Shown here piece by piece: positions 57,001 to 60,000 of a stretch of DNA of 64,000 nucleotides. The stretch's first letter is position 1; each line of letters starts with the position of its first letter. Position numbers: made by a program. The stretch comes from Escherichia coli (GTDB lineage Bacteria; Pseudomonadota; Gammaproteobacteria; Enterobacterales; Enterobacteriaceae), in the NCBI RefSeq assembly GCF_045037415.1, contig NZ_CP173438.1; one strand, written 5' to 3'.

Positions 57001-60000
57001 GAAGATGGGCTGCATTTTCTTGCCCGTATCCGGCAGAAAAAATACACTCTGCCGGTGTTAATTCTCACCGCCCGCGATACCCTTACCGACAAAATCGCCG
57101 GGCTGGATGTCGGGGCCGACGATTATCTGGTGAAGCCTTTTGCGCTGGAAGAGTTGCACGCCCGTATCCGCGCCCTGCTACGACGCCATAATAATCAGGG
57201 CGAAAGTGAGCTGATTGTTGGCAACCTGACGCTGAATATGGGTCGCCGTCAGGTCTGGATGGGCGGTGAAGAGTTGATTCTGACGCCCAAAGAATATGCT
57301 CTGCTGTCGCGCCTGATGCTTAAAGCAGGCAGCCCGGTGCATCGGGAAATTCTCTACAACGATATCTACAACTGGGACAACGAGCCCTCGACCAACACCC
57401 TGGAAGTGCATATCCATAACCTGCGCGACAAAGTGGGCAAAGCCCGTATCCGCACCGTGCGCGGATTTGGCTATATGCTGGTCGCAAATGAGGAAAACTA
57501 ATTGAATCTGATGCGTTTTCTGCGCCGACCAATATCGCTGCGCCAACGGCTGATATTGACCATCGGGGCCATTTTGTTGGTGTTTGAGCTGATCAGCGTC
57601 TTCTGGCTATGGCATGAAAGTACCGAGCAGATTCAGCTGTTTGAGCAGGCGCTACGCGACAATCGCAACAACGATCGCCACATCATGCGTGAGATCCGCG
57701 AGGCGGTCGCCAGCCTGATTGTCCCCGGCGTCTTTATGGTTAGCCTGACGCTATTTATCTGCTATCAGGCGGTACGCCGCATCACCCGACCGCTGGCGGA
57801 GCTGCAAAAAGAGCTGGAAGCGCGCACCGCCGACAACTTAACGCCCATTGCCATTCATAGCGCCACCCTCGAAATCGATGCGGTGGTTTCGGCGTTAAAC
57901 GATCTGGTCAGTCGCCTGACCAGCACGCTCGATAATGAAAGGTTGTTTACCGCTGACGTCGCGCACGAACTGCGAACGCCACTGGCGGGGGTGCGTTTGC
58001 ATCTGGAACTGCTGGCGAAAACGCATCACATTGATGTAGCACCGTTAGTGGCACGACTTGATCAGATGATGGAGAGCGTCTCCCAGTTGCTGCAACTGGC
58101 GCGTGCCGGACAGTCATTTTCTTCCGGTAATTATCAACATGTAAAACTGCTGGAAGATGTCATTCTCCCCTCGTATGACGAACTCAGTACCATGCTCGAC
58201 CAGCGCCAGCAAACCCTGCTATTGCCAGAGAGCGCCGCCGACATCACCGTTCAGGGTGATGCAACCCTGCTGCGGATGTTATTGCGAAACCTGGTAGAAA
58301 ACGCCCATCGTTATAGCCCGCAAGGCAGCAACATTATGATTAAGCTGCAAGAAGATGGCGGAGCGGTCATGGCCGTTGAAGATGAAGGACCGGGTATTGA
58401 TGAGAGTAAATGCGGGGAGTTGAGTAAAGCATTTGTACGAATGGACAGCCGTTATGGCGGAATTGGTCTGGGGTTAAGTATTGTCAGCCGCATTACACAG
58501 TTGCATCACGGGCAGTTTTTCCTGCAAAACCGACAAGAGACTTCCGGCACGCGGGCCTGGATACGGCTGAAAAAAGATCAGTACGTGGCAAACCAGATAT
58601 AAAGAAAGCTGCTGACCACCAGCACGCTGAACACGGTAGTTAAACTTTCATAAACACGGTTTTTCATTGCACTCTCCTCCGTTAACCTGGAGGAGAGTAT
58701 GCGCGTCAGAGATTAAGTGAACCTTAAGAGTTCAATTGACCTGATAAGACAGCATCACATCAGGCCATCCGTTTCAGCTTATTCATCAATTCGCGGATGT
58801 TGCTGCACCAGGCGGGTACGTTTCGCCTGCAAATCGGCAATCTCGTGGTCAATATCATCGATTTTCTGCTCGATATTATCGTAATGCTCGACGAGAATTT
58901 CCTTCGCTTCCTGTATATCTGACGCCGCCGGTGTCGCACCTTTCAACGGACGATTTGCCGTCTCTTTCATGGTTACGCCGGTGATTAAACCAACCACCGC
59001 CACTACCATCAGGTAATAGGCAGGCATCATCAGATTCTGCGAGCTTTCGACCAGCCAGGCCGCCAGTGTTGGCGTCAGACCGGCAACCAGCACCGAAATA
59101 TTAAATGCCGCCGCCAGCGCGCTGTATCGGATATGCGTCGGGAACATCGCTGGCAAGGTAGAAGCCATAACGCCCGTAAAGCAGTTAAGGATCACCGCCA
59201 GCATCAGTAACCCGGCAAAAATCAGGCCGATGACGTTACTGTTAATCAGAATAAACGCCGGGATCGCCAACACAAACAGTGCAACACTACCAAGTAGCAC
59301 AAACGGACGACGGCCAAAACGGTCACTCAGCAAGCCCATCACCGGCTGGACAAACAGCATACCGATCATAATGGCGATAATAATCAGCACCCCGTGGTCT
59401 TCGGAGTAATGCAGGTTATGCGACAAATAACTCGGCATATAGGTCAGCAACATGTAGTAAGTCACGTTGGTGGCAATTACCAGACCAATACATGTCAACA
59501 GGCTGCGCCAGTGTTTGGTGGCAATCTCTTTAAACGAGACTTTCGGGCCATCCTGCAAACCTTCGCGGTCGCCCTGTTCCAGTTTATCGACATGCTGCTG
59601 GAACGCCGGAGTCTCTTCCAGCGCATGGCGCAGGTAAAGCCCGATAATCCCTAACGGCAGAGCGATAAAGAACGGAATACGCCAGCCCCAATCGAGGAAG
59701 TTCTCTTCGCCGACAATGGTCGAAATTAACACCACTACGCCAGCTCCCAGCACAAACCCGGCAATAGAACCAAAGTCCAGCCAGCTGCCCATAAAGCCAC
59801 GTTTACGGTCAGGGGAGTATTCCGCAACAAATATTGACGCCCCGGTATATTCACCGCCGACCGAGAAACCTTGTGCCATCTTACAGATCAACAGCAGAAT
59901 CGGTGCCCAAATACCAATCGTGTCGTAGGACGGTATTAAGCCAATACAGAACGTACTGATCGACATAATCACAATAGTGATAGCGAGGATCTTCTGGCGA

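Follow-up and report, generated by a model that had tools for sequence, protein, structure and literature searches.

The pmrR gene of Escherichia coli and a conserved hairpin over its ribosome-binding site that probably forms in read-through RNA

The region at the 3' end of basS in the analysed window (the whole stretch of 64,000 nucleotides of E. coli DNA) is the E. coli pmrR gene. A preliminary description, made from the sequence, had read it as pmrR; in view of the RefSeq annotation and published work in E. coli this reading is correct and already known, the gene being both annotated and experimentally studied. Our analysis adds that the overlap with basS is incidental and that the promoter geometry and a hairpin over the ribosome-binding site are conserved, while the only new point is that this hairpin is probably a structure of RNA that reads in from the gene upstream and not of the pmrR mRNA. 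Gene identity and PmrA control, taken jointly, are close to certain. For the overall explanation, which blends them with the hairpin model, we estimate a probability of roughly 0.85.

The two genes concerned overlap at their 3' ends:

57502-58602, plus strand: basS/pmrB sensor kinase gene, the last 25 nt of which (58578-58602) overlap the 3' end of pmrR
58578-58667, minus strand: pmrR, encoding 29 aa with a single hydrophobic helix; the coordinates include the stop codon

The 29-codon minus-strand reading frame of the preliminary description is present in the ORF list at 58578-58667, with an ATG start and the peptide MKNRVYESLTTVFSVLVVSSFLYIWFATY. Comparison with the annotated E. coli pmrR, proposed there as a check, returned an identical ORF in RefSeq/PGAP (WP_000797657.1, "LpxT activity modulator PmrR"), annotated as convergent with pmrB and downstream of proP. 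By megablast the region was found in 5412 of 5426 complete E. coli genomes, with an annotated pmrR between pmrB and proP. The pmrR coordinates annotated in strain SK1144 convert exactly to 58578-58667, and in K-12 MG1655 the gene is b4703 (4332116-4332205), with a sequence identical to that of the window from the promoter to the ORF. The 25-nt overlap with basS, also claimed earlier, is common to the window and K-12. Against the NCBIfam equivalog NF033224, which has a curated cut-off of 30 bits, the peptide scored 74.2 bits (E = 5.2e-21), residues 1-29 aligning with profile positions 1-29. The features that mark a PmrR, namely a length of about 29-30 aa, a single hydrophobic helix and convergence with pmrB, were found. 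The gene shares family, length, single hydrophobic helix, gene position and an upstream PmrA box with PmrR of Salmonella enterica and E. coli (NF033224; b4703); nothing material differs, as the window gene is the E. coli ortholog itself.

According to published work, PmrR is an inner-membrane peptide that inhibits the lipid A phosphotransferase LpxT when BasS/BasR (PmrB/PmrA) is active. In E. coli, pmrR is transcribed opposite to the eptA-pmrAB operon, its 3' end overlaps pmrB and a PmrA box controls it (PMC8129183). Deletion of this box in a PmrA-constitutive strain led to a loss of polymyxin resistance and a gain of deoxycholate resistance, and deletion of lpxT restored the polymyxin resistance of the box deletion, which links PmrR and LpxT genetically (PMC8129183). 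The same 90-bp ORF with the 25-bp overlap was described in PMC8004244, and pmrR-basS is listed among convergent transcriptional overlaps in PMC12288877. That the product is a translated membrane peptide, as the preliminary description held, agrees with a signal in Ribo-RET (initiation-site ribosome profiling) and with the recovery of PmrR-6xHis in the membrane fraction (PMC11429745). In the same study a pmrR deletion caused a growth defect at low Mg2+ that was complemented only with an intact ATG, and the growth effects of both deletion and overexpression were independent of lpxT; given this independence, PmrR targets besides LpxT are possible. A pmrR promoter reporter showed no significant change of activity at low Mg2+ in K-12, which the authors explained by regulatory factors outside the cloned regions, mentioning PmrD-mediated control of PmrA (PMC11429745). 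This low-Mg2+ reporter result does not bear on PmrA dependence.

To place the gene in a wider context, the basS loci of 80 species were fetched and scanned for PmrR-like ORFs, boxes and hairpins. A PmrR-like ORF of 29-30 aa, convergent with basS, was present at 55 of the 80 loci, in genera that include Escherichia, Citrobacter, Klebsiella, Raoultella, Kluyvera, Kosakonia, Phytobacter, Enterobacter, Trabulsiella and Pluralibacter; among these 80 loci it was absent from Pectobacterium, Rahnella, Rouxiella and related Yersiniaceae-type loci. Across genera the peptide is conserved while the DNA diverges. The overlap between basS and pmrR ranges from -8 to +57 nt and is hence not a conserved feature, and we rejected it as a functional one on this ground.

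Upstream of the gene, the preliminary description had noted a direct repeat, CTTAAG-N5-CTTAAT, and had considered it consistent with PmrA control. The repeat is present without mismatches as CTTAAGGTTCACTTAAT and is conserved, and its deletion in E. coli has the phenotype expected of a PmrA box. The promoter elements are:

58712-58728, minus strand: PmrA/BasR box CTTAAG-GTTCA-CTTAAT, an exact match, conserved, with the expected deletion phenotype (PMC8129183)
58696-58701, minus strand: putative -10 hexamer CATACT, separated from the box by 10 nt; its second base (A) and its sixth (T) do not vary among 51 aligned promoters

The box fits the YTTAAK-N5-YTTAAK direct repeat of PmrA/BasR-activated promoters. 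When the 64-kb window was searched with at most 1 mismatch, the only other match was an exact one at 55130-55146 on the plus strand, 47 nt upstream of the annotated start of eptA; the expected number of matches was 0.24, and at least 2 matches occurred in 3 of 100 shuffles. This PmrA box of eptA also lies within a hairpin, that of the adiC terminator. Upstream of pmrR, a CTTAAK-N5-CTTAAT box was found at 55 of 55 loci, with its 5' end 57-63 nt upstream of the start codon. In the alignment of the 51 distinct upstream regions, the invariant bases are TTAA in each half-site, GG in the Shine-Dalgarno sequence, TG in the ATG, and A2 and T6, four bases apart, in a hexamer located 10 nt after the box (nAnACT). 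This hexamer reads CATACT in E. coli and GACACT, GATACT or GAAACT elsewhere. An A in second and a T in sixth place are what characterises a -10 hexamer. At the same loci, the promoters of eptA also consist of a box, 10 nt and then cAnnAT, with A2 in 52 and T6 in 53 of 54 sequences.

In promoters of PhoB/OmpR-family activators, a pho box located 10 bp upstream of the -10 takes over from the -35 element; from a PhoB-type activator site, the -10 hexamer lies about 10 nt downstream and the start 6-8 nt further on. The pmrR promoter resembles these in its two-hexamer direct repeat with 5-nt spacing, which ends 10 nt before a -10-like hexamer. By analogy with PhoB, the PmrA box has been placed over the -35 element (PMC4660055). 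A consensus scan found neither a sigma-70 consensus promoter nor a -35 consensus at pmrR, which is expected for an activator-dependent promoter without a -35 element. BasR~P, presumably bound at 58712-58728, would stand in for the -35 element as in PhoB-type promoters; the literature searched held no report that BasR binds this E. coli site directly, and the box-deletion phenotype (PMC8129183) is indirect evidence for BasR~P binding and BasR-dependent transcription.

Between this box and the start codon, the preliminary description had placed a hairpin containing the ribosome-binding site at 58671-58699. The hairpin is real, and with arms at 58671-58680 and 58689-58698 the earlier coordinates were off by at most 1 base:

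58671-58698, minus strand: 10-bp hairpin ACUCUCCUCC / GGAGGAGAGU, arms 100% complementary, loop of 8 nt
58676-58680, minus strand: Shine-Dalgarno core GGAGG, in the 3' arm of the hairpin, 8 nt before the ATG

The fold has an energy of -22.7 kcal/mol (z = -3.5), and none of 200 shuffles folded as well. The stem ends 3 nt before the pmrR ATG, and its 5' arm shares 3 nt with the end of the -10 hexamer. A hairpin is found in nearly every pmrR ortholog: the 5' arms start at position 4-6 of the -10 hexamer and end 0-8 nt, mostly 4-8 nt, after it, while the 3' arms contain the Shine-Dalgarno sequence in nearly all of the 51 sequences and end 3 nt before the ATG in most. RNAalifold predicted no pairs on the MAFFT alignment, as alignment gaps broke the register, and arm-only constructs in register were used instead. 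In 39 such constructs, 87% of the cells were paired, compared to 36-53% in slid-register controls, both-side changes occurred at 5 of the 10 pairs and 0 of 500 shuffles reached the observed covariation; the stem register was set sequence by sequence and 12 shifted-register sequences were excluded, so that these pair counts lean towards structure. One pair varies between A-U (15), C-G (8), G-C (6) and G-U (5).

The interior stem positions hold 35 G-U pairs and 8 A-C mismatches, which indicates that the folding strand is the pmrR-sense and not the basS-sense RNA. This bears on a proposal made for BL21(DE3), that the stem-loop works in RNA of the opposite strand, as part of the basS/pmrB 3' UTR, and sets the level of pmrB mRNA (Xu et al. 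2021). Constructs of pmrB carrying 86, 103 and 126 bp of downstream sequence indeed conferred no, partial and full colistin resistance, respectively, and differed in their pmrB mRNA levels (PMC8004244). However, these constructs end at 58688, 58705 and 58728 and so include, in this order, nothing of the pmrR promoter, its -10 hexamer alone and the complete PmrA box; the data therefore also fit a need for the pmrR promoter. Moreover, the half-life of the mRNA was unchanged (PMC8004244), and on the basS strand each of the 35 G-U pairs would be an A-C mismatch. We thus regard an action of the stem-loop in the pmrB 3' UTR as very improbable.

The whole region from the box to the end of the ORF also corresponds to an entry in Rfam:

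58571-58736, minus strand: match to RF02052, "STnc630 sRNA", covering all 166 model positions (1-166) and scoring 182 bits, where the gathering score is 55

The match covers the same 166 nt on the same strand as this enterobacterial sRNA, with the same hairpin in the consensus structure. Its full length and its score of 182 bits would favour a locus that encodes the non-coding small RNA STnc630, with an incidental ORF, and Rfam files the family as a non-coding sRNA. However, the PmrA box, the hairpin, the ATG and the stop codon are all part of the RF02052 consensus; it spans a promoter element and a translated ORF, and what is filed as an "sRNA" family is hence pmrR with its promoter. The conservation of the peptide against the diverging DNA speaks against a non-coding locus as well, as do the Ribo-RET signal, the membrane-bound tagged peptide and the ATG-dependent complementation in E. 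coli (PMC11429745). With a conserved and translated ORF in the region, STnc630 does not conform to a non-coding RNA, and we consider this reading of the locus extremely improbable. Papers on STnc630 were not found in the literature searched.

How the hairpin acts depends on where the pmrR transcript begins:

58687-58690, minus strand: predicted PmrA-dependent transcription start (K-12 4332093-4332096), placed from the geometry of the box and the -10 hexamer only

A search for a transcription start site or other 5'-end data on pmrR found none in the accessible sources, which did not include Kato et al. 2012 (Salmonella); PMC3973317 holds no information on the promoter position. The box ends at 58712 and the ATG lies at 58667, which leaves no room for a start upstream of 58698. 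Polymerase would use CATACT (58696-58701) and start near 58687-58690, at the last bases of the 5' arm of the hairpin or the first bases of its loop, which would leave the Shine-Dalgarno sequence free in a leader of about 21 nt. Since the -10 hexamer overlaps the 5' arm, an mRNA started by PmrA is expected to begin in the loop, without this arm. Calculated accessibilities are in line with this prediction. In read-through RNA, including 40 nt upstream of the box, the median probability of an unpaired Shine-Dalgarno sequence was 0.001; in RNA from the predicted start it was 0.37, and it exceeded the read-through value in 49 of 51 sequences. The short E. coli leader folded no better than shuffled sequence (-7.6 kcal/mol, z = +0.84). 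Against the model, the ribosome site in the E. coli RNA from the predicted start was unpaired with no more than a moderate probability of 0.2.

A different role of the hairpin would be translational control of the PmrA-dependent mRNA itself, with a start upstream of the stem and some signal that opens the ribosome site. A strong and conserved stem that holds the Shine-Dalgarno sequence would suit such a role, and the Rfam model of STnc630 begins 8 nt upstream of the PmrA box. However, as the family boundaries contain the box, they need not mark a true 5' end. The box ends 13 nt before the stem, and a PhoB-type site needs the -10 about 10 nt on and the start 6-8 nt later; in 51 species the conserved nAnACT hexamer and the 5' arm overlap, and the eptA promoters share the geometry of box and -10. 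Translational control of this kind therefore seems improbable.

Instead, the full hairpin would form only in RNA entering from the upstream gene, as its 5' arm lies upstream of the predicted start. The likely source of such RNA and its mapped ends are:

58779-60281, minus strand: proP (RefSeq and ORF), co-directional and upstream, the proposed source of read-through
58666-58667, minus strand: 3' end of pmrR-sense RNA in published maps, 4-5 nt beyond the stem, where it falls on the A/T of the ATG

Of 36 loci examined, 35 were informative, and 32 of these have an upstream gene in the same direction. In Escherichia and Citrobacter amalonaticus this gene is proP, in most other genera uvrB, and its stop codon lies between 4 nt inside the box and 234 nt upstream of it. 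Two published datasets place an RNA 3' end directly after the hairpin: a Term-seq end at K-12 4332116 (+), which corresponds to window position 58667 (supplement of PMC7815308), and a TRS peak at 4332112-4332120 with its maximum at 4332117, corresponding to 58666 (supplement of PMC10687069). The latter study ascribed the end to an upstream gene that terminates inside the pmrR coding sequence. These maps support the existence of read-through RNA. After the hairpin we found no U-tract, the tail being UGCAAUGAAAAA, and the terminator scan made no call there; without a U-tract following the stem, the hairpin is not a canonical intrinsic terminator. As an alternative to termination, the mapped 3' ends at the ATG could stem from exonuclease trimming back to the stem. 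A second, terminator-like hairpin, inside the pmrR coding sequence (58610-58624), was considered as the proP terminator and rejected, being absent from most other genera, with the mapped 3' ends located at the ATG.

These ends raise the possibility that the hairpin is solely a terminator or 3'-end stabiliser of proP or uvrB, and that its overlap with the ribosome-binding site is a by-product of a compact intergenic region, with no effect on PmrR synthesis. In support of this, both datasets have their 3' ends 4-5 nt beyond the stem, PMC10687069 ascribes the end to termination of the upstream gene, and some genera have the upstream stop codon directly beside the box or overlapping it, so that no space remains for a terminator elsewhere. 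On the other hand, the 3' arm is the Shine-Dalgarno sequence in nearly all of the 51 sequences, and the stem mostly ends 3 nt before the ATG even where a spacer of 100-230 nt lies upstream; the missing U-tract after the stem also argues against a pure terminator. We hold this explanation for possible but rather unlikely. It is compatible with masking of the ribosome site, because PmrR cannot be encoded by an RNA ending at the ATG either.

In the model that we prefer, the hairpin in read-through RNA would mark the 3' end at the pmrR ATG and bury the ribosome-binding site. Whether through termination or through trimming, most RNA from proP would stop at the start codon; RNA that continues past it would keep the ribosome site buried, and PmrR would be made only from PmrA-started transcripts. 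We slightly favour a hairpin that ends and masks read-through RNA rather than acting in the pmrR mRNA. A further reading, a pmrR promoter nested in the 3'-end hairpin of the upstream gene, such that entering RNA would be both ended and masked while PmrA-started RNA would escape both, we rate at even odds. The arrangement of hairpin and promoter is kept, with compensatory changes, in more than 50 species of Enterobacteriaceae with differing upstream genes. We found no earlier description of the pmrR hairpin as a mask of read-through RNA in the literature searched.

A precedent may be seen in fold-back inhibition, reportedly described by Davis, Simons and Kleckner in 1985 for the transposase mRNA of IS10/Tn10, which is said to protect against outside transcription. 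As in that system, the ribosome site of pmrR pairs with sequence upstream of its own predicted start, and only read-through RNA would be masked; the pairing of the Shine-Dalgarno sequence with upstream sequence is present and conserved, while the position of the gene's own start comes from promoter geometry only. In contrast to IS10/Tn10, the 5' arm at pmrR overlaps the -10 hexamer of an activator-dependent promoter, and the hairpin coincides with the 3' end of an upstream RNA.

The recovery of an annotated small gene from raw sequence informs on the method of the preliminary description rather than on biology, and the relevance of pmrR to polymyxin and bile-salt resistance is already published. 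The analysis does flag the Rfam family STnc630 as a protein-coding gene together with its promoter. Beyond this, the comparative result suggests, in a modest and testable way, how a 29-codon regulator located behind a well-expressed gene may stay strictly under the control of PmrA.

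The differences in colistin resistance between the pmrB (basS) constructs of Xu et al. 2021 (PMC8004244) were attributed by the authors to an effect of the pmrB 3'-UTR. Constructs ending at stop +86, +103 and +126 conferred no, partial and full resistance, respectively. In the window these ends correspond to positions 58688, 58705 and 58728, and the constructs contain no pmrR promoter, only its inferred -10 hexamer, or the whole PmrA box, respectively. A requirement for the pmrR promoter, which does not obviously explain the reported differences in pmrB mRNA, also fits the resistance data.

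According to the TRS data, a published RNA 3'-end map of K-12, the primary pmrR 3' end is located at K-12 4332305. This corresponds to window position 58478 (-), 100 nt past the pmrR stop codon; hence, ca. 125 nt of the pmrR mRNA are antisense to basS. The pair pmrR-basS is listed among the convergent 'excludon' pairs in PMC12288877.

Palindromic elements were observed within pmrR and close to the PmrA boxes:

58610..58624 (-), terminator-like hairpin within the pmrR coding sequence, TGCTGGTGGTCAGCA, then GCTTTCTTTA
58737..58767 (-), REP-like imperfect palindrome, GGCCTGAT...ATCAGGTC
within 55114..55146 (+), terminator-like palindrome of 13 bp, AAGCCAACCTTAAG-AA-CTTAAGGTTGGCTT, then a T-rich tail

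At the hairpin inside pmrR, which has a counterpart in only a few other genera, the published 3'-end maps place no RNA 3' end. The REP-like palindrome lies between the PmrA box and the proP stop codon, and its K-12 counterpart shows slightly better pairing than the window sequence. The 13-bp palindrome is found downstream of adiC, which ends at 55089. The eptA PmrA box (55130..55146 (+)) has its first half-site within the 3' arm of this palindrome. The eptA promoter is a second PmrA-dependent promoter of the locus that overlaps a hairpin ending an upstream co-directional gene.

Some Escherichia lineages (loci L002, 4077..4166, and L005) carry N-terminal variants of PmrR (N3Y, S8R, R4H, V5I), while the hydrophobic core and the C-terminus are the same. 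An in-frame ATG upstream could extend the reading frame of these variants to 42 aa.

The pmrR promoter, the hairpin and the entire ORF are spanned by a match to RF02052 (STnc630; 58571..58736 (-)), which is classed in Rfam as an enterobacterial sRNA. RF02052 therefore appears to be a protein-coding gene wrongly classed as non-coding.
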